Translations under genes and position numbers: made by a program
The notes under the pieces: model-generated
Database searches by the model: none
What the model saw: the letters and a program-made list of their open reading frames with translations, nothing else
What the model was told of the DNA's origin: nothing
Part shown: positions 3,511 through 31,042 of the stretch, piece after piece
Layout of the letters: each line of letters opens with the position of its first letter
How positions within the stretch are numbered: the stretch's first letter is position 1
Virus record (IMG/VR): IMGVR_UViG_2049941001_000006
Span: 1 to 44,729 of that record
Length of the DNA stretch: 44,729 bases
DNA from: a virus
Direction: 5' to 3' (one strand)

Positions 3511-4553
3511 GCCGGGTAGCGACCACCACCGCGTGGGATCTGCGCTGGCGCCCGGCCAGCGGCGGCGCGTGGAGCACGATGCGCGTGCCCTACGGCAGCG
3601 AGATCACCCTCACCAGCCTGCCGCGCGGAGAAGCATTCCAGGCGCAGATACGCGCCGTCGCCGCCAGCGGCAAATCATCGCCCTGGGTGGACTGCGATTT
3701 CACCGTCGGCACCACCAACCGCACCGGCGCCGCCGCGCTGCCCAACGTGGCCAACCAGCAGGCCATGTGGGACGTGGACACCAGCGTCACCTTCGCCGCC
3801 AGCAGCGACAGCGCCGGCGCATCGGTGGCCACCATCAGTGTGTCCGCCGGCACCCTGGTGATCGGCGATGTAACGGTCGAGTACGGCGCCAGCAGCGCCA
3901 CGCTCACCGGCACCGCCGGCGACAGCGTCACCGTCTACCTGTACTACGACGACCCTGACCTGGCCGGTGGGACATTGCCGCTGGGCGTGACCACCAACAT
4001 CGTGGACAGCGCCAACGCTGCCGGCCGCGTCGCCATCAGCACGCTGACGTTCACCTACCCTGCCGCCGGCAGCAGTTCCAGCGGTGGCGGCGGCATCGGC
4101 GGCGGTGGCGGCAGCGGCGGCGCCTGCCCGAGTGTCGATGCCTGGGTGATCGAGCGCGAGCGCGGCGCCATCCGCGCTGGCGACGTGCGCGTGGGCGACT
4201 GGCTGCAGGGCGTGGACGGCGCATGGGTGCAGGTGACGTACAGCCAGCCCGAGCGCGTGCCCGGCGTGCAGTTGCTCAGCAGCAGCGGCGCCGCGCTGAC
4301 GTGCTCCACCAGCGCACCCATTCTCACCGCCGCCGGCGTGTTCGTCCTGGCCGAATGCCTGAGCGGCCAGCGCGTGCGCATCACCGGCCGCGGCGTCGAA
4401 CCCGTCACCGCCACCCCGCTCGGCTTGATCGACGTGCAGCACATCAGCTGCGCCGGCGAGTGGGCGCGCCGTGTGTTCCTCGTCGGCGACGCCCCGGGGG
4501 CCCTGTACCCGCATCACAACGTCAAGGCCATCATCGACGAACTGGAGGTCTGA
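3507..4553 (+). CDS. Tail fibre-like protein: FN3-like N-terminus, poly-Gly linker, C-terminal Hint (intein-like) domain
   Basis: ATG 3507 overlaps stop 3508-3510. An FN3-like segment reads WDLRWRPASGGAWSTMRVPYGSEITLTSLPRGEAFQAQIRAVAASGKSSPW. The linker is SSSSGGGGIGGGGGSGGA. The Hint-like part is CPSVDAWVIERERGAIRAGDVRVGDWLQGVDG ... LYPHHN. Confidence 0.65.
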   Translation: MSRVATTTAWDLRWRPASGGAWSTMRVPYGSEITLTSLPRGEAFQAQIRAVAASGKSSPWVDCDFTVGTTNRTGAAALPNVANQQAMWDVDTSVTFAASSDSAGASVATISVSAGTLVIGDVTVEYGASSATLTGTAGDSVTVYLYYDDPDLAGGTLPLGVTTNIVDSANAAGRVAISTLTFTYPAAGSSSSGGGGIGGGGGSGGACPSVDAWVIERERGAIRAGDVRVGDWLQGVDGAWVQVTYSQPERVPGVQLLSSSGAALTCSTSAPILTAAGVFVLAECLSGQRVRITGRGVEPVTATPLGLIDVQHISCAGEWARRVFLVGDAPGALYPHHNVKAIIDELEV

Positions 4554-4936
4554 TGAGCTACACCAAACGCACCGACATCCCCGTCGCCGCCGGCGAGGCC
4601 GCCGTCGAACTCGATACCGGCGAGCTGGTGGCAGTGGCGTGCACCCGCGAGGTGCGCGGCACGTCCCTGTATTTCCTCGCCACCGCCCGCGCGATCGATG
4701 CCAGCGGCAACGCCGTCACCGGCGCCGACGACCAGCCTGTGACCACCCAGCTGGCGATGACGCACACCGACATCGCCAGCGCCGACGACATGGCCCGCGA
4801 CTGCCTGCTCGCCGTGCTCGGTGAGAGCACCACCCTGATCCAGCCCACCCCGCCCGTGCAGGCCGCGAGCATCCGCCGCGCCCTGCAGCTGGCCCAAATC
4901 ACCACCGGCACCGTCGATGCCGGCGACATGCTCTGA
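4553..4936 (+). CDS. Hypothetical tail-module protein
   Basis: ATG 4553 overlaps the upstream TGA. Codon bias is high-GC3 and the product is 127 aa with no recognised motif. Confidence 0.5.
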   Translation: MSYTKRTDIPVAAGEAAVELDTGELVAVACTREVRGTSLYFLATARAIDASGNAVTGADDQPVTTQLAMTHTDIASADDMARDCLLAVLGESTTLIQPTPPVQAASIRRALQLAQITTGTVDAGDML

Positions 4937-4950
4937 GGAGACCTCGCACG

Positions 4951-6996
4951 ATGTCCACCATCCCCACGACCAGCTATCCCGCCGCTGACCTGCCGCTCAC
5001 CGCACCGGGCCAGACCGACAGCCTCATCGGCGTCGACGAGGCCACCCGCCGCCTGTGCCGGTTCCCGCTGTCCCAGCTGCCCGTTCCCGCCACGATGGAA
5101 GCGGCGCTGGATGGCATGCAGGATCAGGTGGACCAGCTCAATGCCGGTCGCAAGGGCTACCCCACTTGGGCTGATGCTGTGGCCGCCGCCGATGCCGTCG
5201 GCACCATCGTCGAGATCATCGGCGACGAAGGCACCCACACAGACCCGGTGAGTGGTGAAACCGTGTCGAACTCCGGGCGGTTTGTGATGACGTCGGGTGG
5301 GTTGGAGTGGAGGAGTGCGGATGCGCTGGCGTCGAAGGCCAACCAGTCCGACCTCGACGTAGTTTCGGAAAGTAAGGCGGACCAGTCGTACTTGGATGGG
5401 TTGTTGCGGCCAGCGGCGGCGGCACGACATGAAGCCGCGATCACGGACGACTACGGCAACGCCCTGATCGTGTTTTCCGATGCCGAAATCGAGCATCCGG
5501 TAATTCAGCAACTGCAAGAGGATGCCCCGACTGCTGCGGGGAAATTGATACATGTTGGTGGAGCGTCTCGACTTGCCGTAACGGATGAGGCGGGCAATGC
5601 ATGCGCTGTGTTCGACACTGAAAACCCCGGAAACGGTGGTACTGGCAGTACGCCGGAGTCGGATTACGTAATAGCGCCAGAAACGTGGTCGTATGGCGAC
5701 AGTGACGCTTGGAGCCGGGAAGATGATCTGGCGCAAACCGCCTATATTTTCGTGAGTTTCGGTCAGTCGAATGCAATCGGCACTAACAACGATACTGACA
5801 GCGTGATTTCATCAGAGGCAACCTACCCGGAAAACGCGCTGATGCCGGGGGCAGTGCGTGTAACGAGCGGCGGTCAATCGCTGGTTCCGCTGGTCGAAAG
5901 CGGCACCGGCAGCGTTAAGGAAACCGTGGTTTCTGCGGCGGTCAATCATTTCATTCGTGAGCACGATACGACGTTCGGTGTGCGCCCGACGATTGTCGGT
6001 TTTGCTGCCGGTGTCGGCGGTGCTCCGATGATGGCTCTGAAGCGCGGCAGCGAGGGATACGGCTATTTTCTGGCTGGCCTCACCGATGCGCTGGCTGGCC
6101 TGAAAGAACTGGGTTTCCGGAAGTTCATCACGGTCGTGAACTGGATTGGCAGCGAAGGTGATGCCGACAAGTTTTGGGGCATGACGGCGAGCCGGTATTG
6201 CAAGCAAGCCAAGGCATTCTTCCGTCAATTGCAGCAGGACGTGATGGAGCGCACTGGCGAGACTGTTCCGCCGCTGATCGTCTTACAGCCCATCGCGTAC
6301 AACCCTGACAGTCTGCACGGATCAGTGCCGTTGCCTGCGGGCGGCGTGCAGGCGCTGAACCTGTGGGATGCGCCCGTGTTGCGCGGGATGGCGTTGCTCG
6401 ATGGCGTGGACAACATCCGCGTTGCGCCGCCCGCATACGCATACCCGCATTCGACGGCGAGCGGCGACGGCTTGCATCGCAACTGCGCCGGGCATTATCA
6501 GTGCGGGGTCAATTTGGCTAAGGTAGCGTGGGCCGAACTCATCGGCACCGGCTGGCGTGGTTGCCGCCCGTCAATCACCGAAAAGCCCTACTGGTCCAGC
6601 GCCACGGAATTGATCGTGCCGTTCGACACGCAGGGCGGTGGCCCGGCAACATCAGGCGGGGATGACGGAACGGTGCTGGTGCTGGATACCAGCGGGGATC
6701 ATGTGACCCCGCTGACCAATCACGGCCTCGAATTCGATGACGGCAGCGGTTCCCCGCCGTCGATTACGAGCGTGAGCGTGTCCGGCAAAAACCTGGTTGT
6801 CACGCTCGCCAGCGCGCCAACTGGCCCACGCAAGCGGTTGTTCGGTGGACTCACGCCGAGTACCGCTGGTGGCGTCGGGCCTGTTACTGGCCCTCGTACA
6901 ACTATCAGAGATGCCTACGGCTGGTCGCCCATCCATGCATCTGCTAGCGCAACTCCCATCTACGATTTTTCGCTCCCATTCGCATTGGAGGTTTGA
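4951..6996 (+). CDS. Tail fibre/spike with SASA/SGNH-type carbohydrate O-acetylesterase domain
   Basis: GAGGAG RBS. The fibre-anchor motif GTHTDPVSGETVSNSG is shared with the gpJ-like protein. YIFVSFGQSNAIGTNN (GQSN block) and the distal SGDGLHRN (D..H) fit sialate-O-acetylesterase-like esterases. Confidence 0.7.
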   Translation: MSTIPTTSYPAADLPLTAPGQTDSLIGVDEATRRLCRFPLSQLPVPATMEAALDGMQDQVDQLNAGRKGYPTWADAVAAADAVGTIVEIIGDEGTHTDPVSGETVSNSGRFVMTSGGLEWRSADALASKANQSDLDVVSESKADQSYLDGLLRPAAAARHEAAITDDYGNALIVFSDAEIEHPVIQQLQEDAPTAAGKLIHVGGASRLAVTDEAGNACAVFDTENPGNGGTGSTPESDYVIAPETWSYGDSDAWSREDDLAQTAYIFVSFGQSNAIGTNNDTDSVISSEATYPENALMPGAVRVTSGGQSLVPLVESGTGSVKETVVSAAVNHFIREHDTTFGVRPTIVGFAAGVGGAPMMALKRGSEGYGYFLAGLTDALAGLKELGFRKFITVVNWIGSEGDADKFWGMTASRYCKQAKAFFRQLQQDVMERTGETVPPLIVLQPIAYNPDSLHGSVPLPAGGVQALNLWDAPVLRGMALLDGVDNIRVAPPAYAYPHSTASGDGLHRNCAGHYQCGVNLAKVAWAELIGTGWRGCRPSITEKPYWSSATELIVPFDTQGGGPATSGGDDGTVLVLDTSGDHVTPLTNHGLEFDDGSGSPPSITSVSVSGKNLVVTLASAPTGPRKRLFGGLTPSTAGGVGPVTGPRTTIRDAYGWSPIHASASATPIYDFSLPFALEV

Positions 6997-16913: not shown

Positions 16914-17156
16914 ATGATCGTGAGCAATCTCACCACAACACCCGCCTCGGAGCAACCTCCCGCCTGGCCGAAGGTCAGCCTGCGGTTGATGGTCCGCAGT
17001 CGCGCCCGGATCGATGCGATCAGGCACGGCGTGGACCCGGCGCCGGCCGTTGCGGCCGCCGAGGCCGCATGGCGCCAGCATCGCACCGTCCGTGCCGCCC
17101 TGCATGCCGCCTGGGCCGCCACCGACGCCATGGCCGGGCAAGGGGGGGCGCAATGA
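16914..17156 (+). CDS. Hypothetical early protein (80 aa)
   Basis: ATG lies behind GAAGGAGA. Confidence 0.5.
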   Translation: MIVSNLTTTPASEQPPAWPKVSLRLMVRSRARIDAIRHGVDPAPAVAAAEAAWRQHRTVRAALHAAWAATDAMAGQGGAQ

Positions 17157-17443
17157 CCCACGAGGCCGAGCCGCGCTGGTCCTTCTGCGGAATCCCGGGC
17201 CCGCACGTTGTGTTTGCCGGCCCGCGCACGAGGGCCGAGTTCGAACGGCTGCCGCTGGAGCCCGTCGTCCACGACTGGGTTCCCGACCAGGACCCGGTCG
17301 TGGCGCCGAGGGGCGACCAGCGTGCCTGGGAGCGGCGCTGCACGGTCAAGGTCCTGGCCGACGCAGAAACCGGCATCGACGTGATTTTCCAATGGTTCGA
17401 CTACCGCCTGGCCGAGCGCCAGGGTGGCGACGGGGAGGGCTGA
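17153..17443 (+). CDS. Hypothetical early protein (96 aa)
   Basis: ATGA overlap with the upstream gene. Confidence 0.45.
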   Translation: MTHEAEPRWSFCGIPGPHVVFAGPRTRAEFERLPLEPVVHDWVPDQDPVVAPRGDQRAWERRCTVKVLADAETGIDVIFQWFDYRLAERQGGDGEG

Positions 17444-17445
17444 CC

Positions 17446-18387
17446 ATGGATGAGCTGCCCATCCCCGGCGACATCTCCACCCTGCAGTACCAGTTCATCG
17501 AACATCGGAGGCTGCGCGGCGCGTGCCTCAACACGCTGCTGGCCTATCAGTCCGACCTGACGCGGCTGGCCGCGTTTCTGCAGCGCTGGGACATCACGCT
17601 GGTCCAGTTGATCAGCGAGCGTTTGATCAATCAGTGGCTCGACGAGGGCCTGGCACACCTGGGCTGGTCGCGGCGGACGGCGGCGCGGAGGCTGTCATCA
17701 GTGCGGGCGTGGCTGACCTGGTGCCGGGGGCAGGGGTTGTTGCGCCACGACCCCACCGCAGGCGTGCGCATCCGGTTCCATGCGCGGCGCGTGGTGGCAC
17801 CGGAGATGTCGGCGCTCAAGGCGATGATCGCCGGGATCGGGGAATCCGACCCGGTGGACCTGCGGGATCGCGCGATCCTGCTGCTGTTGCTGGATGCGGC
17901 GCTGCGCGCCAACGAGGTTGTGCTGCTCGACGCGGCGGCTGACAGCCCCAGCGGCTATGTCGTCGACGAGGGCCGGCTGCGCGTCTGCGTGCGCCCCAAG
18001 GGGGGCGACGCAGGCGAGGCCGACGTGGTTGGCATCGAGCCGGTCACCGCCGCTGCGGTGCGCGCCTGGCGGGAGTGCCGGGGGACGTTGGCACGGGCGG
18101 ACGAGCCGGCGCTGTTCGTCAGTCGCCGCGGGCGGCGCATGAGCCGCCAGACCCTGCACCTGATGGTCAAGGCGCGAGGCACCGAGGCGGGCATGCCCGG
18201 GCTGCACGCCCACCTGTTGCGACATCGCCGCCTCGGCGAGGTGGTCGAAAAGGCCGGGCTGGACGCCGGGGCCGCCCATGCGCGCCACCGGCAGAAATCC
18301 ACCACCGTCAACGTCTACGGCGCGCATGCCGCGGAGGTCCAGCGTCGGGCCATCCGCACGCTGGCGCCATTGGGAGAGCTGCCATGA
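17446..18387 (+). CDS. Tyrosine recombinase, XerC/D-like (no. 1)
   Basis: An N-terminal SAM-like domain (LNTLLAYQSDLTRLAAFL) is present. Catalytic pattern: ALRANE (Arg), VRPKGG (Lys), HAHLLRHRR (H-x-x-R), ARHRQKSTTVNVY (His..Tyr). Confidence 0.85.
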   Translation: MDELPIPGDISTLQYQFIEHRRLRGACLNTLLAYQSDLTRLAAFLQRWDITLVQLISERLINQWLDEGLAHLGWSRRTAARRLSSVRAWLTWCRGQGLLRHDPTAGVRIRFHARRVVAPEMSALKAMIAGIGESDPVDLRDRAILLLLLDAALRANEVVLLDAAADSPSGYVVDEGRLRVCVRPKGGDAGEADVVGIEPVTAAAVRAWRECRGTLARADEPALFVSRRGRRMSRQTLHLMVKARGTEAGMPGLHAHLLRHRRLGEVVEKAGLDAGAAHARHRQKSTTVNVYGAHAAEVQRRAIRTLAPLGELP

Positions 18388-20659: not shown

Positions 20660-21158
20660 CCTCGCGCTAGATCCCTGTTGCGGCGCGAGGGCGATGTATT
20701 TCGACCCTGCCGACCAGCGCGTGCTGTTCGGGGATTTGCGGGACGAAACCCGCATCGTCACCGACAACAGCCTGCGGAATCGATCCGGCGTCCGCGCGCT
20801 GGAAATCCATCCGGATGTCCGCATGGATTTCCGCGCACTGCCGTTCGCCGATGAGACGTTCACGCTCGTCGTGTTCGACCCGCCCCACCTGATTCAGGCC
20901 GGGCCGCGATCGTGGCTGGCGGCGCGATACGGAAAGCTCGGCAACGACTGGCGCGAGGATCTGCGCCGCGGATTTTCCGAATGCTGGCGCGTGCTGCGCC
21001 CGTCCGGCACGCTGATTTTCAAGTGGAACCAGACCCAGATCCCGACGCGCGAAGTGATCAAGCTGGCGCCGCAGGCCCCGCTGTTCGGACACCGCAGCGG
21101 CAAGCGCTCCGGCACGCACTGGTTCACCTTCCTCAAGCTGGAGGCAACCCATGGCTGA
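20652..21158 (+). CDS. Small SAM-dependent DNA methyltransferase (N6-A / N4-C type, DPPH motif)
   Basis: LDPCCGARAM is motif I-like, and LVVFDPPH is motif IV (D-P-P-H). Confidence 0.7.
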   Translation: MADLALDPCCGARAMYFDPADQRVLFGDLRDETRIVTDNSLRNRSGVRALEIHPDVRMDFRALPFADETFTLVVFDPPHLIQAGPRSWLAARYGKLGNDWREDLRRGFSECWRVLRPSGTLIFKWNQTQIPTREVIKLAPQAPLFGHRSGKRSGTHWFTFLKLEATHG

Positions 21159-23220
21159 CGGCTCTTGCTCTCCCAAGCTCGAGCAGCACGCCTTCCACTT
21201 CCCGCAGCTGTCGGCGGCGTGCCGCCTGCGCCCGGGTGAAATCGTGGTGGACCTCTTCGCTGGCGGGGGCGGCGCGTCCACGGCGATCGAGCATGCGCTC
21301 GGCAGGCCGGTGGACATCGCCGTCAACCACAACCCGTGGGCCGTGAGCCTGCATGCGGCCAACCACCCCTACACGCGGCACTTGTGCCAGGACGTGTGGG
21401 AGGCCGACCCGCGCATCGAGTGCGATGGCCGTGCCGTGGGCCACCTGCATGCCAGCCCGGACTGCACGCATTTCAGCCAGGCCAAGGGCGGACAGCCGCG
21501 GAGCCGCGCCACGCGCTCGCTGAGCTGGGTAGTGCTGCGCTGGGCCGGCAGCGTGCGCCCGCGCCTCATCACGCTGGAGAACGTGCGGCAGATCCTGCAA
21601 TGGGGGCCGCTGATCGCCAAGCGCGACCGCGCCACCGGCCGCGTGGTGAAGCTGGACGGCCGCATCGCCGCGCCCGGCGAGCGCGTGTCGATCGACCAGC
21701 AGTTCCTCATCCCCGACAAGCGCCACGCCGGCCGCACCTGGCGCCGCTTCATCGCCGCGCTGCGCGGGCTGGGCTACACCGTGGAATGGCGCGTGCTGCG
21801 CGCCTGCGACTACGAGGCCGCCGGCCTGCTGGCAGGCACCAGCCGGGAACGCCTGTTCCTTGTGGCGCGGTGCGATGGGCAGCCCATCCGCTGGCCCGAG
21901 CCCACCCGTGGCCCGGGGCGCGCCAAGCCCTACATGACCGCCGCCGATGCCATCGACTTCACTGACACCGGCCGCAGCATCTTCGACCGCCCGCGCCCGC
22001 TGGCCGACGCCACCCTGCGCCGCATCGCCCGCGGCGTGAAGCGCTACGTGCTGGATGCGGAGGAGCCGTTCATCGTCCCCGTAACGCATGCAGGAGAGCG
22101 TCGAGTCCATCCCGCAAGCGAGCCATTGCCAACCATCACGGCGGCAAACCGCGGCGAGCTGATGGCCTGCACCCCGCTACTGGTGCAATGCGCCAACGCC
22201 TCCGCCGATGGCACCGCCCGCGCCGATGCGCCGCTGGGCACTATCACCGCACAGCCCAAGGGCGGCTCGCATGCCGTCGTCGCCCCGGTGCTGGTGCAGG
22301 CCGCACACGGCGAAGGCCAGCCCAACGGCGTGAAGCGATGGGGCGATGGCGCCCGAAGCGTGCGCGAACCGCTCGGCACCATCACGGCCTCCGGCAGCGG
22401 CGGGCAGGCAGTGGCGGCGGCCACGCTCATCAAGTTCCGCGGCAGCAGCAACGGCGCGGAGATCGACGAACCGATGCCCACCATAACCAGCGGGGCCGGT
22501 GCTGCGCGCCCGGCCGGCGCGGCCCACGCGATGGGCGTCATCACCGCCTTCATCGAACAGGCCAACGGCGGGTTCGCCGCCGACGGCGCCGGGCATGACG
22601 CACGCGAACCGCTCTCCACCATCACCGCCACCGGCAGCCAGCAGCGGCTGGTGACGGTGCACATGGCAACTCTGCGGGGCACAAACACCGGGCAGCCCGT
22701 TACCGATCCGCTGCGAACCATCACGGCGGGCGGCGAACACCACGCTGTCGTTGAGTGCAGCCTCAGTTCAGAGCACGAAGCCGGCGCGCTGCGCATGGCC
22801 GCCTTCCTCATGCGCTACTACGGTGATGGCGGCCAATGGGGCGATCTGCGCGAGCCGATGGCCACGATCACCACGAAAGACCGCCTCGCCCTGGTCACCG
22901 TCCACGTGCGCGGCGTGCCCTACGTCATCGTGGACATCCACCTGCGCATGCTGCGCCCGGCCGAACTGTTCCGCGCCCAAGGCTTCCCGGCCAGCTACAT
23001 CATCGACCGCACCGCCGACGGCCGCACCGTCAGCACCAGCCGCGCCGTGGCCATGGTGGGCAACTCCGTCAGCCCACCGCCGCTGGCCGCCATCCTCGAA
23101 GCCAACCTCGACCCGCACAGGAGGCACTGTAGGTGGCCACCACGAAGGAGAGAAAGATGTTCCGTGGAATCCACAAATGGCTGGTCAAGCTGTTCCAACG
23201 CACCCCGCGCGGCGGAATAG
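21151..23220 (+). CDS. DNA cytosine-5 methyltransferase with seven tandem TRD-like repeats
   Basis: Motifs present: I (DLFAGGGG), IV (SPDCTHFS), VI (ENV), VIII-like (TSRERLFL), and the C-terminal QGFPASY and GNSVSPP. Between them are seven repeats of (E/D)P(L/M)xTIT(A/S/T). Confidence 0.9.
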   Translation: MADGSCSPKLEQHAFHFPQLSAACRLRPGEIVVDLFAGGGGASTAIEHALGRPVDIAVNHNPWAVSLHAANHPYTRHLCQDVWEADPRIECDGRAVGHLHASPDCTHFSQAKGGQPRSRATRSLSWVVLRWAGSVRPRLITLENVRQILQWGPLIAKRDRATGRVVKLDGRIAAPGERVSIDQQFLIPDKRHAGRTWRRFIAALRGLGYTVEWRVLRACDYEAAGLLAGTSRERLFLVARCDGQPIRWPEPTRGPGRAKPYMTAADAIDFTDTGRSIFDRPRPLADATLRRIARGVKRYVLDAEEPFIVPVTHAGERRVHPASEPLPTITAANRGELMACTPLLVQCANASADGTARADAPLGTITAQPKGGSHAVVAPVLVQAAHGEGQPNGVKRWGDGARSVREPLGTITASGSGGQAVAAATLIKFRGSSNGAEIDEPMPTITSGAGAARPAGAAHAMGVITAFIEQANGGFAADGAGHDAREPLSTITATGSQQRLVTVHMATLRGTNTGQPVTDPLRTITAGGEHHAVVECSLSSEHEAGALRMAAFLMRYYGDGGQWGDLREPMATITTKDRLALVTVHVRGVPYVIVDIHLRMLRPAELFRAQGFPASYIIDRTADGRTVSTSRAVAMVGNSVSPPPLAAILEANLDPHRRHCRWPPRRRERCSVESTNGWSSCSNAPRAAE

Positions 23221-23381
23221 TGCCCAGCTCGTGGTCAGTAGAAACCTGCGTAGGGTGCCAGGCGATGCTGCTTCGGGGCGCTCACGGTGAATGCCATATA
23301 TGTGGTTGCTACTGGCTGAAGAACGAGCCATTGCCACCTAACACCGCCGGTAAGCCGGCGAGCGAAGCGAGATCGGCTTGA
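23157..23381 (+). CDS. Small Cys-rich (zinc-ribbon-like) protein
   Basis: AAGGAG RBS with ATG 23157. ETCVGCQ..HGECHICGC gives a CxxC..CxC pattern. The gene overlaps the methylase 3' end by 64 nt, and its last 14 codons run into repeat c1. Confidence 0.45.
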   Translation: MFRGIHKWLVKLFQRTPRGGIVPSSWSVETCVGCQAMLLRGAHGECHICGCYWLKNEPLPPNTAGKPASEARSA

Positions 23382-23395
23382 CCGGCTTGTTAGGC
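23336..23395. repeat. attC-like 60-bp element c1
   Basis: ACCTAACACCGCCGGTAAGCCGGCGAGCGAAGCGAGATCGGCTTGACCGGCTTGTTAGGC. The outer stem AAGCCG/CGGCTT and an extra stem GCCGGT/ACCGGC pair, while the inner stem is decayed. Confidence 0.6.
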
Positions 23396-23418
23396 CGCAA
23401 CCCACAAGGAGCAAGAGA

Positions 23419-23595
23419 ATGTTCGACATCACGAAGCAAGATGAGAAGGCCGCGTACTGCACCGGTCGAGATTGCGCTCTGAATGGCGCGAACACCATGA
23501 ACTGCCATTTCTCCTACTTTGCGCGCCCTGAGCTCACGCGCGCATGGGAAGAAGGCAAGAAGCAGGGCGAAAGCGAGTTGCGGTTTAACGCCTGA
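23419..23595 (+). CDS. Small protein (58 aa), possibly Rmf/CrpP-fold-like
   Basis: This ORF is not in the supplied track because it is under 60 aa. AAGGAG lies 8 nt upstream of the ATG. The product is MFDITKQDEKAAYCTGRDCALNGANTMNCHFSYFARPELTRAWEEGKKQGESELRFNA, and its stop lies inside repeat c2. Confidence 0.45.
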   Translation: MFDITKQDEKAAYCTGRDCALNGANTMNCHFSYFARPELTRAWEEGKKQGESELRFNA

Positions 23596-23642
23596 ATTAA
23601 GCCGCGCCGCGATGCGGCGTCGGCTTGAATGAATTGTTGGGC
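23583..23642. repeat. attC-like 60-bp element c2
   Basis: GTTTAACGCCTGAATTAAGCCGCGCCGCGATGCGGCGTCGGCTTGAATGAATTGTTGGGC. The stem AAGCCGCGCCGC/GCGGCG(T)CGGCTT has one unpaired T. Confidence 0.7.
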
Positions 23643-23663
23643 CGCAGCCCACGGAGAATAGAC

Positions 23664-23945
23664 ATGAGCATAGCGAAGCGTATTTTTGACGAGGCATTTG
23701 GAAAGCCGCGCGACCCAAGAAGCAACGCATATAAAGACGGGGTTTTGAGAACGCTTCAGATGCGCTTGAGGGAGTTTGACGGGATGTCGATTGCTCAATA
23801 CACCCTCGGCACTGCTGAATGCGATGCGTATTTTGCCGGGACTGATGAAGGGCACCGCCTCGCCAGCGAGTGGCTCGCGGAAGAATCCGAACGCGAGCGC
23901 GAATTTGCACATGCCGATCGCGAAATCCAAACGAGCGGCTTCTGA
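23664..23945 (+). CDS. Small hypothetical protein (93 aa)
   Basis: GGAG RBS. The product begins MSIAKRIFDEAFGKPRDPRSNAYKDGVL.. and has an acidic C-terminus. Confidence 0.55.
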   Translation: MSIAKRIFDEAFGKPRDPRSNAYKDGVLRTLQMRLREFDGMSIAQYTLGTAECDAYFAGTDEGHRLASEWLAEESEREREFAHADREIQTSGF

Positions 23946-23949
23946 TGCG

Positions 23950-24009
23950 GCCTAACACCTGAGTTAAGCCGAGCCGCGAAGCGGCTTCGGCTTGGACGAA
24001 TTGTTAGCC
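23950..24009. repeat. attC-like 60-bp element c3
   Basis: GCCTAACACCTGAGTTAAGCCGAGCCGCGAAGCGGCTTCGGCTTGGACGAATTGTTAGCC. The stem is AAGCCGAGCCGC/GCGGCT(T)CGGCTT. Confidence 0.7.
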
Positions 24010-24035
24010 ATCATTGAACGGTACGGAGAACATAG

Positions 24036-24245
24036 ATGGACATGAGCAAAGAAGAGATCGAGGAACTCGCAATTGAAGCCGCCGGTGCAGAAATCAATGG
24101 CTACAGGTTTGGGGAGAACGGACGCGAACCGCTATACGGGATACCCACGGAAACGGACGATGGCGACGTGTACTACACGAAACTCGAATTGCCCGATTGG
24201 CTGACCCGGTTTGCTGAATTGCTGATTGAGCGACATGACGGCTAA
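24036..24245 (+). CDS. Small acidic hypothetical protein (69 aa)
   Basis: GGAG RBS. The stop TAA lies inside the GGCTAAC of repeat c4. Confidence 0.55.
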   Translation: MDMSKEEIEELAIEAAGAEINGYRFGENGREPLYGIPTETDDGDVYYTKLELPDWLTRFAELLIERHDG

Positions 24246-24299
24246 CACCCGAGCTAACCCGAACCGCGAAGCGGTTTCGGGTTGAGCGAGTTGTTAGTT
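24240..24299. repeat. attC-like 60-bp element c4
   Basis: GGCTAACACCCGAGCTAACCCGAACCGCGAAGCGGTTTCGGGTTGAGCGAGTTGTTAGTT. The stem AACCCGAACCGC/GCGGTT(T)CGGGTT carries compensatory changes relative to c2 and c3. Confidence 0.7.
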
Positions 24300-24318
24300 C
24301 GCAAACCACAAAAAGGAA

Positions 24319-24525
24319 ATGACCATGTGCAAATGCGCAGATGAAATGGACGCGAAGTTGAAAGACTACGGCGGAAAGCTAGTGCGAGCAATTGCCCTGC
24401 GCGGCAACACGATGATCGCACGGCTGCTGGTCAGCACTGAAAAGACCGACCCGAAAAAGCGCAAGCCGTTGCCGGTTGTTGCTGCCAGCTTTTGCCCTTT
24501 CTGCGGCGAGCGAGTTGCGGACTAA
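24319..24525 (+). CDS. Small zinc-ribbon-like protein (68 aa)
   Basis: CKC at the N-terminus and CPFCGERV at the C-terminus. AAGGAA RBS; an alternative ATG lies at 24325. The stop TAA lies inside GACTAAC of the truncated element. Confidence 0.55.
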   Translation: MTMCKCADEMDAKLKDYGGKLVRAIALRGNTMIARLLVSTEKTDPKKRKPLPVVAASFCPFCGERVAD

Positions 24526-24556
24526 CAATCGATACACCGCCGAAAAACGGCGTATC
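24520..24556. repeat. Truncated / atypical fifth element (GACTAACAA + short hairpin)
   Basis: GACTAACAATC followed by GATACACCGCCG-AAAAA-CGGCGTATC. It has the AAC-containing end only and no GTTRRRY partner on the + strand. Confidence 0.4.
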
Positions 24557-24609
24557 CGGCCAGGTCGGGGCCATTCAAATACCCATTCAGAATAAGTGGA
24601 GCGAACACC

Positions 24610-24753
24610 ATGCTGATGACCACGTTCGTATTCGGAATCGTCCTGGGCGCCGGGCTGTTCACCGGGGCATCGGCGATGCTGGCGGTGTCGATGGCGGCCG
24701 AGGTCGCATTCCGGGCTTGGCGCCACCGGCGAGGAGGGGCCGATGCAGCCTGA
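24610..24753 (+). CDS. Small membrane protein (47 aa)
   Basis: This ORF is not in the track because it is under 60 aa. GGAG RBS. The product is MLMTTFVFGIVLGAGLFTGASAMLAVSMAAEVAFRAWRHRRGGADAA, with one or two TM segments. Confidence 0.4.
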   Translation: MLMTTFVFGIVLGAGLFTGASAMLAVSMAAEVAFRAWRHRRGGADAA

Positions 24754-24970
24754 TTGCTTTGTGATGTCCAAGGCCCTCATCAGGGCGGTCCGACGCTATG
24801 CGCACGGGGCCAAGGGGCTGGATCAGGAAACCTACCGGCTGCACCTGTCGGCCGTGGGGGCTCGCCATACGAACGAGCTGACGCGGCATCAGCACCAGGC
24901 TCTGATGGAACGGCTGCGCAGCCTGCCGGATCGCCCGCGGCCGGCCAGTCGGGGAGGGCGGGGCGCATGA
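24743..24970 (+). CDS. GemA / Mu gp16-like (DUF1018) regulatory protein
   Basis: GAGGAGG RBS. KALIRAVRRYAHGAKGLDQETYRLHLSAVGARHTNELTRHQHQALMERL fits the DUF1018 pattern (li..ih.a...lGLdd.tYR..l...g). Confidence 0.5.
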   Translation: MQPDCFVMSKALIRAVRRYAHGAKGLDQETYRLHLSAVGARHTNELTRHQHQALMERLRSLPDRPRPASRGGRGA

Positions 24971-25203
24971 ATCACGCTCCGACCGTGCGCGATCTTCTCG
25001 CCATCGCGCCGCAGCCGCACCGCTTCAGCGATCACGCGTTGGCGCGTGCGCTGCGCACCTCGCCGCCGGTGGTGCGCGAGCTGAAGGCGCAGGCCGCGCA
25101 TTTGACACACCCCAGTCGGGACGAGGCGCGGTTGATGGCCGAGCTGGGGATCAATCTGGCCGAGGCCCGGACGTGGCTGGCCATGCAGGGAGTGACACGA
25201 TGA
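24967..25203 (+). CDS. Hypothetical protein (78 aa)
   Basis: ATGA overlaps on both sides. Confidence 0.45.
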   Translation: MNHAPTVRDLLAIAPQPHRFSDHALARALRTSPPVVRELKAQAAHLTHPSRDEARLMAELGINLAEARTWLAMQGVTR

Positions 25204-25655
25204 GCAGAGGGCAGCAGGTGGTGGTGGTGACCGGGCGGCTGTCCGCTGATCCGGTGGTCGAGGCGCCAGCGGCGGGCGGGCTGATTGCCAGGCTGTCCAT
25301 CCCGGTGGACGAGCGCTACACGAGCCGCAGCGGCGAGGTGGTCGAGCATACGGAATGGCTGGAGGTCAAGCTGTTCGGGCGCCAGGCCGAGGTCGCGCAG
25401 CAATACCTGGCCAAAGGTCACCTGGTCACGGTGACCGGCCGGCAGCACACGGAGAAGTGGCAGGCGCAGGACGGGTCGCCACGATCGCGGACGTACATCT
25501 ACGCGGCCGCCCGGGGCGGGCTGACGCTGCTGGGCGGAAATGAGCACACCCGCACGCGGGACGAGCATCGAGGGCGGCACGGTGCCGGTGGTGCGGCTGT
25601 CGCTGCCCAGGCGGTCACCAGCACGACGGAGGTGGACGATGACATCCCGTTCTGA
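25200..25655 (+). CDS. ssb: Single-stranded DNA-binding protein
   Basis: OB-fold pattern VVVVTGRLSADP..TEWLEVKLFGRQAEVAQQYLAKGHLVTVTGRQ, plus the acidic tail DDDIPF. Confidence 0.9.
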   Translation: MSRGQQVVVVTGRLSADPVVEAPAAGGLIARLSIPVDERYTSRSGEVVEHTEWLEVKLFGRQAEVAQQYLAKGHLVTVTGRQHTEKWQAQDGSPRSRTYIYAAARGGLTLLGGNEHTRTRDEHRGRHGAGGAAVAAQAVTSTTEVDDDIPF

Positions 25656-25656
25656 C

Positions 25657-26703
25657 TCAATCCGGGCTGACGCGCCGGGCGCGGGGGTGATGGCTGATCG
25701 CGGTGCGCAGGTCGTCCAGATCCACGCCGAGATACAGCGCGGTCGTCACCACCGAGCTGTGCCCCAGCAGTTGCGCGATCGCCATGAGATCGCAGCCGTT
25801 GCGGCGCAATTCGCTCGCGAAGCTGGCGCGCAGCAGGTGCGGGTAGTGGCCCTGCCAGGGGCGGCTGGACAGATGCGATTCCAGCCGCTGGTAGCCGCAG
25901 CCCAGGCCGAGCGAACGACGCGCATGGCGGTTCACGATCACCCAGACCGAGCGGGCGTCCCGCAGCGGCCGACCTGTGCGGGTGACGAACAGCATGGCGT
26001 TCTTTCCGGGGCCTGTGGTGCGGCGCTGGCGCAGGTAGGTCTCGAACAGGCCATACCAGGCCTCTCCATAGGGCACGTATCGGTCCTTCGCGCCCTTGCC
26101 ATGAACCAGCAGCAGCCCGCCATCGAGGACGGAGCCGAGCTGCAGGCCGGCCAGCTCGCCGGCGCGCAGGCCGCATTGATACAGCGTGGCCATGGCGAAA
26201 TGGTCGCGAACCCCGGTGAAGGTGCTCAGGTCGGGCGAGGCCAGCAGGCGGCCGACCTCTGCATCACTGAGGGCGCGCACGATGCGCTCGGGACGGCGGC
26301 GCATTTTCGGGAAGTCCGTTGGCACCCACGCGCCCGGCTGCACCAGCGGCAGCCAGTCGAACCAGGCGCGAAGCGCGCTGATCTCGAGGTTGAGCCGCGC
26401 AGGACCAACCGTTTCCTGACGCATGCGGAAGTAGCGCAGCAGCGGATCGTGCGAAGCCCCTGGCGGCAAGGTTCCGCCCACGTCAAGCCCAGCATGGGCC
26501 AGGAACCGCCGCACGGCGCCCGTGTATTCGCGCACCGTGCCATCCGCAGCGCCCACCGACGACAGGTAGACGCCGAAGCGCTCCGGCAACGTCATGGACA
26601 GCAGCGCGGCAGCCCGCCGACCTAAGACATATCCACGTTTTTTCGACATAACCAGCCAACCCATAGCACGTAGATGCCGCCGAAACGCACACCGGAAAGC
26701 CAT
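25657..26703 (-). CDS. int: Tyrosine recombinase / phage integrase (no. 2), adjacent to the AT-rich attP-like region
   Basis: GLRAGEL (Arg), HGKGAKDRYVP (Lys), HLLRASFAS (H-x-x-R), LLGHSSVVTTALYL (His..Tyr). Alternative starts lie at 26664 and 26649. It lacks the IntI-specific extra domain. Confidence 0.9.
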   Translation of the reverse strand: MAFRCAFRRHLRAMGWLVMSKKRGYVLGRRAAALLSMTLPERFGVYLSSVGAADGTVREYTGAVRRFLAHAGLDVGGTLPPGASHDPLLRYFRMRQETVGPARLNLEISALRAWFDWLPLVQPGAWVPTDFPKMRRRPERIVRALSDAEVGRLLASPDLSTFTGVRDHFAMATLYQCGLRAGELAGLQLGSVLDGGLLLVHGKGAKDRYVPYGEAWYGLFETYLRQRRTTGPGKNAMLFVTRTGRPLRDARSVWVIVNRHARRSLGLGCGYQRLESHLSSRPWQGHYPHLLRASFASELRRNGCDLMAIAQLLGHSSVVTTALYLGVDLDDLRTAISHHPRARRVSPD

Positions 26704-28078: not shown

Positions 28079-28412
28079 TGGCTAAGTGCCTGAAATTGCT
28101 GGCAAACGCGGTTGTGCAAGGGGCGCCACAAGGCGCGGTGGCGGCGCTGCGCTGCCCGCGGCTGTTGGGCGGTCGCTGGGGGGGCTCGGCGCATGCACCA
28201 CAATGGTGCAAAACCGAACCGGCCAACCGGGGGCTGCAACCCGTTGATTCTGCGGCGGTTCCCCGTGCCCTGCCGGTCGGGGCGGCACGGTGGCCTGTGC
28301 CAGTGAGCCCCCCCCCTTCCGATCCGGGCAGGCGGGCCCTGGGTCGCCGAGCTATTGCCCCCTCGAAAAATGGGAGGGGATTTGGGGGGCGCGTGCCGCC
28401 CCGGGGTGCGGT

Positions 28413-29573
28413 ATGAGCTCGCCGGGGCAGGCGCGAGAGTTGCCGGGGGCGCTGCCGTCGGCGGTGATGCAGGCCCTGCAGGGGCTGCCGAACGGGCCAC
28501 AGTTGCCGGCCTACCGGGCGATGCTGCTGGCCGAGCACGCCAGCTTCGCCACGGTCATGCGGCGCGTGGAGCGTCTCGGGATGGCGCCATCAGCCCTGGC
28601 CGAACTGTGGCTGTGGCTGGCGCACCTGGTCATCGACATGGGGTCGCGGCCGTCCACCACCGGGCAGAGCTATGCACGGACGGTCGGGCGGTTCCTGGGC
28701 TGGGCGTCATCGGCCGGGGTGGACTACGCCGCGGCGACCATCGGCGATTTCGATCGCTGGCAGCGCTGGCTGGCGATCGAGATGCGTTGCGGCCCGGCCT
28801 GGCGCCGGCAGCAGGTGCAGGCCCTGCGCAATTTCTACGATTGGCGGCGGAGTCGAGGCCTTGCACGAGAAAACCTTGCGGCCGACGTGCGCGGGCCGAG
28901 GGTGAAGCCGAGGCCCGCGCGGCGGTACACCGACGAACAGCTGCGCGCGCTGTTCAGGGTGGTGGATCAGGCGCGTGAGCCGGTACGCACCCGTGACCGC
29001 TGCGCGCTGCTGCTGCTGCTGGCTGCCGGCCTGCGTCGCGAGGAGTTGTCCAGCCTGCGCCTGTCGCAGCTGGAGCTGACCCGGCGCAAGGGCGTGGTGC
29101 ACGTGTTCGGCAAGGGGGCGAAGGAGCGCGACGTGCCGTTCGAGGGGCCGGTGGTCGAGGCGCTGCATGCCTGGCTGGCCGCTCGCGAGACGCTGCCGTT
29201 TCTGGTGGACCAGGAGGCGCTGTTCGTGGCGCTGACGTCGCCATCGCGCGGGCAGTCGCTGTCGCTGCGCAGCGTGGACTCGCTGGTCGTCCACTACGCC
29301 CGCATTGCCCGGCTGCGCGAGTGGGGGGTGCATCGATTCCGGGTCACGTTTGCCACGCAGCTCTACGACGACGGTGCGGACATCGAGACGATCCGCGCCC
29401 TGATGGGGCACGAGAGCATCGAGACCACCCGCCGCTACCTCGCGGTGTCCGAGCGCGCCCGGCGCACTCGGTTGAGCGCCGAGCGCCAGCACCGGGTGCT
29501 CGGGACGGCGTCCAGCGGGACGCCGCTGTGGTGGCGGCTCGCCACCGGGGAGTTGGGCCGTGACTACGATTGA
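28413..29573 (+). CDS. Tyrosine recombinase, XerC/D-like (no. 3)
   Basis: GLRREEL (Arg), FGKGAKERDVP (Lys), HRFRVTFAT (H-x-x-R), LMGHESIETTRRYL (His..Tyr). The first ATG with a sensible N-terminus is 28413. Confidence 0.85.
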   Translation: MSSPGQARELPGALPSAVMQALQGLPNGPQLPAYRAMLLAEHASFATVMRRVERLGMAPSALAELWLWLAHLVIDMGSRPSTTGQSYARTVGRFLGWASSAGVDYAAATIGDFDRWQRWLAIEMRCGPAWRRQQVQALRNFYDWRRSRGLARENLAADVRGPRVKPRPARRYTDEQLRALFRVVDQAREPVRTRDRCALLLLLAAGLRREELSSLRLSQLELTRRKGVVHVFGKGAKERDVPFEGPVVEALHAWLAARETLPFLVDQEALFVALTSPSRGQSLSLRSVDSLVVHYARIARLREWGVHRFRVTFATQLYDDGADIETIRALMGHESIETTRRYLAVSERARRTRLSAERQHRVLGTASSGTPLWWRLATGELGRDYD

Positions 29574-30713: not shown

Positions 30714-31042
30714 TGGTCGCCGCGGACATCCTGCCGATCCTGCGGCGCTGGCAGGCCGTCCTGGTCGGCCTGGACGATGCGCTGGAGCCGCTGCGCAGCG
30801 CCACCGGAATAGCGCCGGAATGCCCGATCAACGCGGCCATCTACGCCGCCATCGGGCTGTGCAACGAATGGGCAGCGCAGCGGATCGGCTGCGAGGTGTC
30901 CGCGCTGGAATGGTGGTGGCTGGAGAATGATTTCGGTGAGCGCGGCCATGAGGCCGGCAGCGCCGATGGCGCATCTTTCCCGCCGCGACCGATGCGCACG
31001 CTGGCGGACTACGCCGACCTGCTGGCCTGGGAGGTGGCCTGA
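30713..31042 (+). CDS. Hypothetical protein (109 aa)
   Basis: GGGAGGGG RBS, with ATGA overlaps on both sides. Confidence 0.5.
   Translation: MVAADILPILRRWQAVLVGLDDALEPLRSATGIAPECPINAAIYAAIGLCNEWAAQRIGCEVSALEWWWLENDFGERGHEAGSADGASFPPRPMRTLADYADLLAWEVA

Follow-up and report, generated by a model that had tools for sequence, protein, structure and literature searches.

The viral sequence IMGVR_UViG_2049941001_000006 (IMG/VR; positions 1 to 44,729 of the record, analysed over its full 44,729 nt and called the window below) contains in its early region four 60-bp repeats, c1 to c4, interspersed with small open reading frames (ORFs). Judged by their sequence, these repeats are genuine attC sites of the integron type, with the attC bottom strand on the + strand of the window. 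The locus is a set of clustered attC sites without an integron integrase (CALIN) in a tailed temperate phage, and very probably it is a CALIN of five promoterless cassettes situated in the early operon of a phage whose host belongs to the Lysobacterales (Xanthomonadales). The + strand is the coding strand of all cassette genes and, as the alignments described below indicate, also the recombinogenic bottom strand; all genes appear reversed relative to the genes of resistance cassettes. CALINs in phages, often with methyltransferases as cargo, were already published in 2023 (PMC9892861), and the basic finding adds a member to a known kind. The departure from the known pattern is the polarity, together with a cargo that includes families otherwise found as plain phage genes.

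The repeat search detected a single repeat family in the window, consisting of four 63-nt copies spaced by 247, 367 and 290 nt and 71-83% identical to c3. The 60-bp units c1 to c4 align without gaps and have a common layout: ..YTAAC at the start, GTTRG at the end, and an outer helix linking the two ends. The inner helix (AAGCCG-N-GCCGC / GCGGC-N-T-CGGCTT) closes a three-base terminal loop, GAA or GAT, and the central spacer between the helices comprises 5 nt and 4 nt on its two sides. An earlier reading of the same letters (the original prediction) had described RYYYAAC-like and GTTRRRY-like terminal heptamers and a common stem-loop with a GAA loop. The AAC and GTT triplets, characteristic of attC terminal boxes, are indeed invariant in all four copies, and the common fold was recovered. 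The description was too strict, however, in that degenerate box positions deviate from the consensus in c3 (GTTAGCC) and c4 (GGCTAAC, GTTAGTT), two positions of the c1 inner stem are mismatched and c2 has GAT in its loop.

Pairing was evaluated with an attC-type structure written by hand on the alignment of c1 to c4, using 500 shuffles and slid structures as controls. Of the cells assigned to pairs 95.7% were paired (93.8% in the R-box helix, 96.7% in helix 2 formed by L' and L''), and six pairs were changed on both sides, five of them in helix 2. This pairing and covariation value was reached by none of the 500 shuffles, and only 20-41% of the cells paired when the structure was slid. In c4 the covarying pairs are in alignment columns 15:47, 19:42, 23:37 and 24:36. 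The claim that stem differences between the copies are compensated was thus borne out. T38 and G45, both located in the 3' arm of the + strand, are invariant and unpaired in all four copies; the unpaired T had been noticed in the original prediction. Each repeat thus has the L'/L'' inner helix, its extrahelical bases confined to a single arm, a spacer and a loop. When folded as single-stranded DNA, as had been proposed, the 60-mers were more stable than their shuffled versions on both strands, with z values of -3.9 to -4.6 for the + strand and -4.5 to -6.2 for the - strand.

The extrahelical bases of attC sites are situated near L'', and attCaadA7 has two, named G16 and T23 (PMC5027507). G45 and T38 are positions 16 and 23 when counted from the 3' end of the window copies, assuming that the published numbering runs likewise. 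The proposed attC architecture held: the R and L boxes pair, stem changes are compensated, and two bases bulge out where they do in attCaadA7. attCaadA7 is an assay benchmark of the same attC type as the window copies (PMC5027507, PMC9892861), and aadA-type attC sites are classed as Xanthomonadales-type (PMC9892861). In many attC sites of this type the 3' box is followed by the motif CCGCA(A/G)CCCAC or a variant of it. In the window such motifs are found at 23396-23406, 23643-23653 and 24300-24310, and they are also present in the viral loci L047 and L089; the motif pairs with TTGCGG upstream of the 5' box, lengthening the R helix to ~12 bp.

Database comparison substantiated the similarity to the aadA-type 59-base element that the original prediction had stated. 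For both c2 and c3, matches of 88-94% identity over 63-71 nt were obtained in at least 5000 plasmid records apiece; they fall on attC sites of class 1 integrons, namely those of the aadB, aadA1 and aadA2 cassettes (c2 versus the aadB attC, 88.4% over 69 nt; c3 versus the aadA2 and aadB attC sites, 93.8% over 64 nt). The window repeats are, at this level of identity, homologous to attC sites known to be recombined by IntI. In explicit alignments with the bottom strand of the aadB attC, the + strand of c3 agreed in 54 of 56 positions and its reverse complement in 43 of 55, and the same orientation preference was seen with all four copies. In two annotated plasmid examples the resistance gene was on the strand opposite to the match of the window + strand. 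Since the coding strand of aadA and aadB is by definition the attC top strand, the + strand of the window corresponds to the bottom strand, and what the original prediction had called an oddity, the inversion of all ORFs, was upheld. It is the bottom strand that is cleaved, in the AAC of R' (PMC5027507).

A covariance model (R1) was built from c1 to c4 and the bottom strands of the aadA1 and aadB attC sites. R1, which is partly made from the window's own copies and is a surrogate for the attC models of IntegronFinder and HattCI, scored c1 to c4 with 71-87 bits for the + strand, compared with 15-22 bits for the - strand. There was no other convincing R1 match in the 44.7 kb, the next best scoring 17.4 bits (E ~0.008). 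This weak match, at 30737-30787 (+) in a region of 73% GC, is probably due to chance. In other loci R1 yielded 152 matches at E <= 0.1 across 80 loci (both strands counted), and its strand calls were correct for the control integron L069. Rfam, which holds no attC family, gave no match at E <= 1 for the window elements.

These data bear on the possibility that the resemblance to attC sites is superficial and that the hairpins serve phage regulation, as terminators, RNA-processing sites or mRNA stabilisers. Each hairpin lies between genes on the transcribed strand, where a stable RNA hairpin is expected, and attC sites are thought to be weak terminators (PMC9892861). Such an explanation is nevertheless very improbable: c3 is almost identical to a functional attC, the + strand has no terminator-like site at c1 to c4, Rfam was silent, the same gene occurs elsewhere with different neighbours and different attC sites (see below), and relatives of the phage lack the elements. 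Nor do the repeats resemble dispersed REP-type elements, as there are only four copies, all in the island.

The window encodes tail fibre, portal, tape-measure and minor tail proteins, as expected of a tailed phage. The array is within the early region, in the order clamp-like protein, two DNA methyltransferases, array, single-stranded DNA-binding protein (SSB), a convergent tyrosine recombinase and a replication protein. As the original prediction had stated, the island has a lower GC content than the phage backbone: GC is 0.70-0.74 in the flanks, 0.52-0.59 across 23200-24600, then returns to ~0.70. None of the three tyrosine recombinases was recognized as IntI, also in accord with that prediction. 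Those encoded at 25657-26703 (-) and 28290-29573 (+) scored 40 and 54 bits, respectively, on TIGR02249 (cut-off 265), with which the IntI1 control gave 506 bits; the recombinase at 17014-18387 (+) had no TIGR02249 match, and a tblastn search of the window with IntI1 detected only the catalytic C-terminus of one tyrosine recombinase. Two of the three recombinases are Xer-like and lie on either side of the replication gene. Because the window has no integron integrase, CALIN, i.e. at least two close attC sites with no intI nearby, is the right label for the four complete attC sites present within 964 bp, as had been proposed. A complete integron, which has an intI gene, an attI site and a Pc promoter beside its array, is not present: intI is missing and there is no promoter-like site at the right flank.

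Relatives of the recombinase encoded at 25657-26703 were found in genomes of Stenotrophomonas, Lysobacter, Pseudoxanthomonas, Luteimonas, Xanthomonas, Dyella and Rhodanobacter. Members of this family share an insertion whose conserved end, RPWQGHYPH, directly precedes HxxR. The family is mainly confined to Lysobacterales prophages, which points to a temperate phage and to a member of the Lysobacterales (Xanthomonadales) as host. That this Xer-like enzyme itself acts on the attC sites can be given very little weight. A recombinase 42% identical to it is encoded directly beside the array of the viral contig L073, and the family-wide insertion before HxxR also speaks in favour of such a role, but 19 related Lysobacterales prophage loci have no attC array within 10 kb (one weak match of 27 bits), and L085 and L035 are likewise without arrays. 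Moreover, the array of L047 lies beside a serine recombinase, no relative of the enzyme was detected in the other array-bearing loci, and the enzyme lacks the IntI-specific domain, as reflected by its low TIGR02249 score. As a dedicated attC recombinase the phage integrase was rejected, its relatives being without arrays.

If the + strand is the bottom strand, exchange would occur at RYYYAA|C of the 5' box (the vertical bar marks the crossover point), and a cassette would consist, on the + strand, of C, the attC body, GTTRRRY, a short spacer with a Shine-Dalgarno (SD) sequence, the gene and RYYYAA. It follows from such a crossover that the half-box after each gene should complement the half-box before the same gene. 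Around the five ORFs the cognate half-boxes matched in 9, 10, 10, 11 and 11 of 12 positions, and in four of the five rows of the box-versus-box comparison the cognate half-box was the best match. The half-site at the right end, TTGCGGACTAA|C, matched the reverse complement of the c4 3' box in 11 of 12 positions, which makes ORF5 a complete cassette and the right end of the array a precise RYYYAA|C crossover junction. A terminal half-site of this kind also closes the arrays in L073 and L121. The truncated fifth element that the original prediction had placed at 24520-24556 had to be redefined, as only GACTAAC and its 5' extension (24515-24526) are attC-derived; the segment 24531-24556 is a separate, unrelated hairpin with no R1 match and a fold z of ~-2.

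At the left end the reverse complement of TGTAGGTGGCCA (23128-23139) agrees with TTGCCACCTAAC, the 5' box following ORF1, in 9 of 12 positions including the exact 8-mer TAGGTGGC, and with the other 5' boxes in only 5-6 of 12. The spacer adjoining this putative R'' remnant resembles the post-attC spacer of L073. Cognate to TTGCCACCTAAC, the remnant adds ORF1 to the array as cassette number five, its attC (attC0) being truncated. The homology to related methylases ends at ~23106-23111, at the truncation point of attC0, and the native C-terminus and stop codon of the C5 methylase appear to have been replaced at the array junction. In the C5 methyltransferase ORF homology is lost at about residue 653-665, and ~35 further codons extend to 23220, overlapping the start of ORF1 in another frame. 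An arrangement in which four cassettes were inserted within ORF1, with the original frame resuming to a stop at 24595 (Model A), was also considered. The protein reconstructed in this way had no homologue, and the model was superseded by one of five cassettes with the first attC truncated, which accounts better for the data because a cognate R'' remnant lies upstream of ORF1. No homologues of ORF1 were found with a query that carried the hypothetical 23-residue C-terminus instead of ORF1 as encoded.

Information on cassette mobility came from homologues of the array genes. ORF4 has homologues of 64-90% identity on four independent contigs (L088-L091), in each case between attC matches on the coding strand and with neighbours that differ every time. 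In the five contexts the similarity starts in the upstream attC and stops at GGCTAA|C of the downstream attC. Identity is 70-85% in the upstream attC, 44-81% in the spacer and 51-70% in the downstream attC, which varies in sequence and length; in reading these values it must be taken into account that even between unrelated members of this attC family identity amounts to 71-83%. Such a boundary pattern is the prediction of a 5'-box crossover. Because it is flanked by attC sites on the coding strand and has varied neighbours on unrelated contigs, ORF4 qualifies, by sequence comparison, as a mobile cassette: the same gene is bounded by attC, has different neighbours and is flanked by cognate half-sites. 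Individual mobility is shown in this sense for at least one cassette (ORF4), and not for ORF1, ORF2 and ORF5 singly.

ORF3 has 15 homologues outside its own cluster (47-85% identity). Those in L077-L084 are among tightly packed early genes of phages or prophages, without attC, whereas in L121 and L122 the homologue has a c2-like attC (also with GTTGGGC) upstream and the cognate half-site CCGCCCAA|C downstream. A suspected ORF3-ORF4 adjacency in L080 was discarded as the next gene is not ORF4-like (E = 7.9; no tblastn match). In deposited phages no ORF3 relative was found by tblastn. ORF5 matches phrog_7033 and has relatives of 28-49% identity on 14 viral contigs, almost all without attC, and one weak match among deposited phages. 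In L131 a weak attC-like match (22.5 bits, 1736-1791) directly follows a same-strand ORF5 homologue, and this may be another case of the ORF5 family as a cassette. ORF2 gave only a weak match to phrog_28181 and has no relatives among the viral contigs. Small accessory genes of phage type thus make up the cargo, and for some of them versions with attC as well as versions lacking it are known.

Other viral sequences were searched for similar arrays. The attC core pattern was found in 33 stretches in 32 IMG/VR contigs, and R1 found arrays in many. Among deposited phages, a nucleotide search with the region gave no match, and the matches of an attC-only search were confined to phage or phage-like entries containing resistance cassettes of class 1 integrons. 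The contig L073 has the order methyltransferase (with its stop in GCATAA|C), attC, ORF, attC, ORF, long attC, ORF, half-site TGCATAA|C and convergent recombinase, and all of its array ORFs are on the bottom strand. A methyltransferase gene is directly upstream of the array both in the window and in L073. Pfam searches identified DNA methyltransferase cassettes on the bottom strand in L047, L052 (two), L062 and L072, and these arrays adjoin YqaJ, helicase and PD-(D/E)XK genes; in the control integron L069 the hexapeptide transferase, AAA, RraB and APH cassettes were on the top strand. Methyltransferases of the N6_N4, C5 and Dam-like types recur as cassettes (L052, L062, L072, L047 and L088). 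In L047, at least nine attC sites are present at 2540-6985 (- strand), all genes, including a C5 DNA methyltransferase cassette, being on the bottom strand; this array is located between a large serine recombinase gene and further same-strand genes.

For a count of polarity each inter-attC interval was assigned by its dominant ORF. IntI-linked arrays of viral contigs were canonical in 9:0 intervals, whereas in IntI-less arrays reversed intervals prevailed by 25:6, with 31 intervals unclear (Fisher's exact p = 2e-5 for polarity versus IntI linkage; per locus 12:3, p = 0.035), numbers that derive from crude ORF calls, loci that were not dereplicated, a single attC type and fallible IMG/VR calls. 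In the literature searched no discussion of reversed cassette polarity was found, and its recurrence in phage arrays appears to be new. Cassettes typically, though not by definition, are of canonical polarity (a top-strand gene with attC on its 3' side), and the bottom-strand location of all window genes is this array's departure from the norm of the family.

One pair of contigs differed by cassettes. L121 and L122 share a backbone, and the difference between them (L121 2818-2868 versus L122 1925-2942) is three ORFs plus two attC sites, one case of the cassette-level presence or absence for which a comparison of related phages had been proposed. The breakpoints fall within 28 identical nt, GCGCAGGCGTCGGCTTGAATGAATTGTT, of the attC 3' half and not at AA|C. 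This change fits slippage or homologous recombination better than IntI, and we count it against IntI-mediated exchange. The shared left site is an attC without 5' arm. On this basis attC sites in phages could serve mainly as portable short homologies for phage or host homologous recombination or slippage, with no need of IntI. Arrays do adjoin recombination genes (YqaJ, Erf, SSB, PD-(D/E)XK), and between the window and L091 the left edge of high ORF4 similarity is, by eye, inside the upstream attC. As a general account this is unlikely, because it leaves the conserved extrahelical bases and the compensatory stem changes unexplained, and because cognate half-boxes at every ORF and terminal half-sites are signatures of site-specific R-box exchange.

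Further points weigh against the CALIN interpretation. Besides R1 being partly made from the window's own copies, no relative with an empty site was found, and insertion into the window phage is thus not demonstrated: beyond the methylase gene the relatives L003-L041 are mosaic and devoid of attC, the syntenic relative L085 has neither methylases nor array, and 19 Lysobacterales prophages have a different gene order. The left junction is a truncation and not a site-specific junction. Selection by an integron platform would not be expected to yield genes of reversed polarity. Finally, mobilization by IntI is inferred from sequence comparison. Some of these features are accommodated by an alternative in which illegitimate or homologous recombination copied the block whole from a chromosomal integron or CALIN of the host, leaving it as a passenger that is inert today. 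The truncated attC fused to a methylase without native stop, the extension of the low-GC stretch 83 nt past the terminal half-site, and the ordinary mosaic variation, without attC, shown by relatives at the array position are all in line with it. We regard it as a possibility of some weight, if rather unlikely, since the right end is exactly at the AA|C crossover and cognate to the c4 3' box, L073 is precise at both ends (...GCATAA|C), and ORF3 and ORF5 are phage-type genes; moreover, five genes co-oriented with the phage operon and provided with SDs would be unlikely in a random piece of a bacterial array, whose genes are on the other strand. In the related Lysobacterales prophages L092, L094 and L097 the gene order is g24743, g24967 (in L092 and L097), methylase and SSB, whereas in the window the methylase precedes g24743 and g24967. 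The different methylase position suggests that the early region of the window (21151-25655) is rearranged besides carrying the array.

In the favoured interpretation, a CALIN of promoterless cassettes, the genes would be expressed by read-through from the phage early promoter, each with its own SD; no promoter was evident for the array genes when the window was scored for promoters. The + strand, carrying T38 and G45, is the strand that an integron integrase would be expected to fold, bind and cleave. The cassettes would be moved in trans by an IntI of the host through single-strand attC recombination, with insertion presumably at GTT-type secondary (attG-like) or attI-like sites, and homologous recombination or slippage between attC sites may reshuffle the arrays as well, as in L121/L122. 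Integrons are present in 93% of Xanthomonas genomes (10.1101/2025.06.18.660453), phage attC sites are recombined by IntI1 (PMC9892861), and attG sites (GWT) accept cassettes via IntI, which can also excise imprecisely (10.1101/2022.09.11.507474). Because integrons are frequent in Xanthomonas, IntI1 recombines phage attC sites and IntI inserts at GWT, host IntI seems the parsimonious mover. In hosts with LexA-controlled intI, expression of IntI is SOS-induced (PMC3108266).

The array can be compared with several known systems. With the aadB, aadA1, aadA2 and aadA7 attC sites the window copies share the 60-nt length, the R', L', L'', R'' layout, the extrahelical G16 and T23 (from the 3' end), the GAA loop and 88-94% identity. 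The aad-type cassettes differ in having the gene on the top strand with attC 3' of it, whereas in the window the gene is on the bottom strand with attC 5' of it. The phage CALINs of Qi et al. (2023) are likewise IntI-less attC clusters with small unknown genes as cargo; methyltransferases are common cargo there, and in the window a methylase adjoins the array, with methyltransferases as cassettes in L047, L052, L062 and L072. The available text of that study describes them as having the typical structure of bacterial arrays and contains no discussion of polarity versus the bottom strand (PMC9892861). The attG (GWT) cassettes, single attC sites lacking an integron integrase (SALINs) and small CALINs (10.1101/2022.09.11.507474) are also small arrays far from any integron. 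Similarly to attG insertions, the right junction of the window is at GTT/AAC (- strand ...GATTG|TTAGTC) and both junctions of L073 are GCATAA|C, but the left junction of the window is truncated and no empty target was recovered; insertion of the array at an attG site is plausible on these comparisons.

In sedentary chromosomal integrons inverted cassettes are few and dispersed between canonical cassettes; most of them encode toxin-antitoxin systems, and they bring promoters of their own. The window genes resemble them in running against the canonical array direction. They differ in that the array is wholly inverted, has no evident promoter and is co-directional with the phage operon. Integron cassettes are a main route of adaptive gene trade among bacteria, and integrons have recently been shown to store anti-phage defence genes. 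Phages with attC arrays would be the other side of an exchange with such defence-storing integrons, and the window offers a clean, analysable phage array whose attC type is shared with the aadA and aadB cassettes of clinical importance.

Tentatively, we propose that temperate phages, at least those of Xanthomonadales-type hosts, draw on a distinct pool of 'mirror' cassettes, having the gene on the recombinogenic bottom strand and attC 5' of it, that are silent in bacterial integrons and expressed co-directionally in the phage early operon, and that are exchanged by host IntI. If this were true, mirror cassettes would carry phage accessory genes such as DNA methyltransferases and small zinc-ribbon or acidic proteins, which may counter host defences, and exchange between phages would plausibly coincide with prophage induction in the SOS response. 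One conceivable reason for the polarity is selection for having the foldable strand as the non-template strand or as leading-strand template; exposure of the strand in transcription or replication might play a part. Alternatively, the polarity could reflect how the cassettes arise, as would be the case if they were excised between an attC that had been inserted and a secondary AAC located downstream of a neighbouring phage gene. The existence of ORF3 and ORF5 with and without attC would make cassette genesis directly testable. If reversed polarity holds, it implies a constraint on the foldable strand in the phage or a phage-specific route of cassette formation; if it fails in a larger survey, the locus is one more phage CALIN.

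Table. Features of the attC array in the window
Feature	Position	Strand	Remarks
R'' remnant of truncated attC (attC0), TGTAGGTGGCCA	23128..23139	+	Left boundary, where the array is fused with the C5-methylase gene (3' end)
ORF1, small Cys-rich protein, cassette 1	23157..23381	+	SD GAAGGAGAG; GC below that of the backbone
attC c1, most degenerate copy	23336..23395	Bottom strand on +	R1 71.0 bits (+), 14.9 bits (-); fold z -4.5
ORF2, 58 aa, cassette 2	23419..23595	+	SD and ATG; stop 10 nt within c2
attC c2, 3' box GTTGGGC	23583..23642	Bottom strand on +	R1 81.5 bits (+)
ORF3, 93 aa, cassette 3	23664..23945	+	SD and ATG; stop 5 nt 5' of c3; phage accessory-gene family
attC c3	23950..24009	Bottom strand on +	R1 87.0 bits (+), 22.0 bits (-)
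ORF4, 69 aa, acidic, cassette 4	24036..24245	+	SD and ATG; stop in TAA of the c4 5' heptamer
attC c4, compensated stem changes	24240..24299	Bottom strand on +	R1 81.5 bits (+), 20.1 bits (-)
ORF5, 66-68 aa, zinc-ribbon-like, cassette 5	24319..24525	+	SD and ATG; stop in TAA of the 5' heptamer
Terminal R' half-site, TTGCGGACTAA|C	24515..24526	+	Crossover junction closing the array; no attC body after it
Low-GC spacer, 83 nt	24527..24609		Contains an 11-bp hairpin (24531-24556); fold z ~-2

The map also modifies the original statement that each of the four 60-bp elements sits at the stop codon of a small ORF preceded by an SD. The elements themselves stood, and so did the stops of ORF4 and ORF5 in the 5' heptamers; the stops of ORF2 and ORF3 are close to c2 and c3 but not exactly at them (Table), and ORF1 does not stop at c1 but runs 46 nt into it, to a stop at 23379-23381. 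The spacer beyond the terminal half-site could be target DNA, a remnant of attI from the donor integron, or neither, and its hairpin has a terminator-like score on the - strand only.

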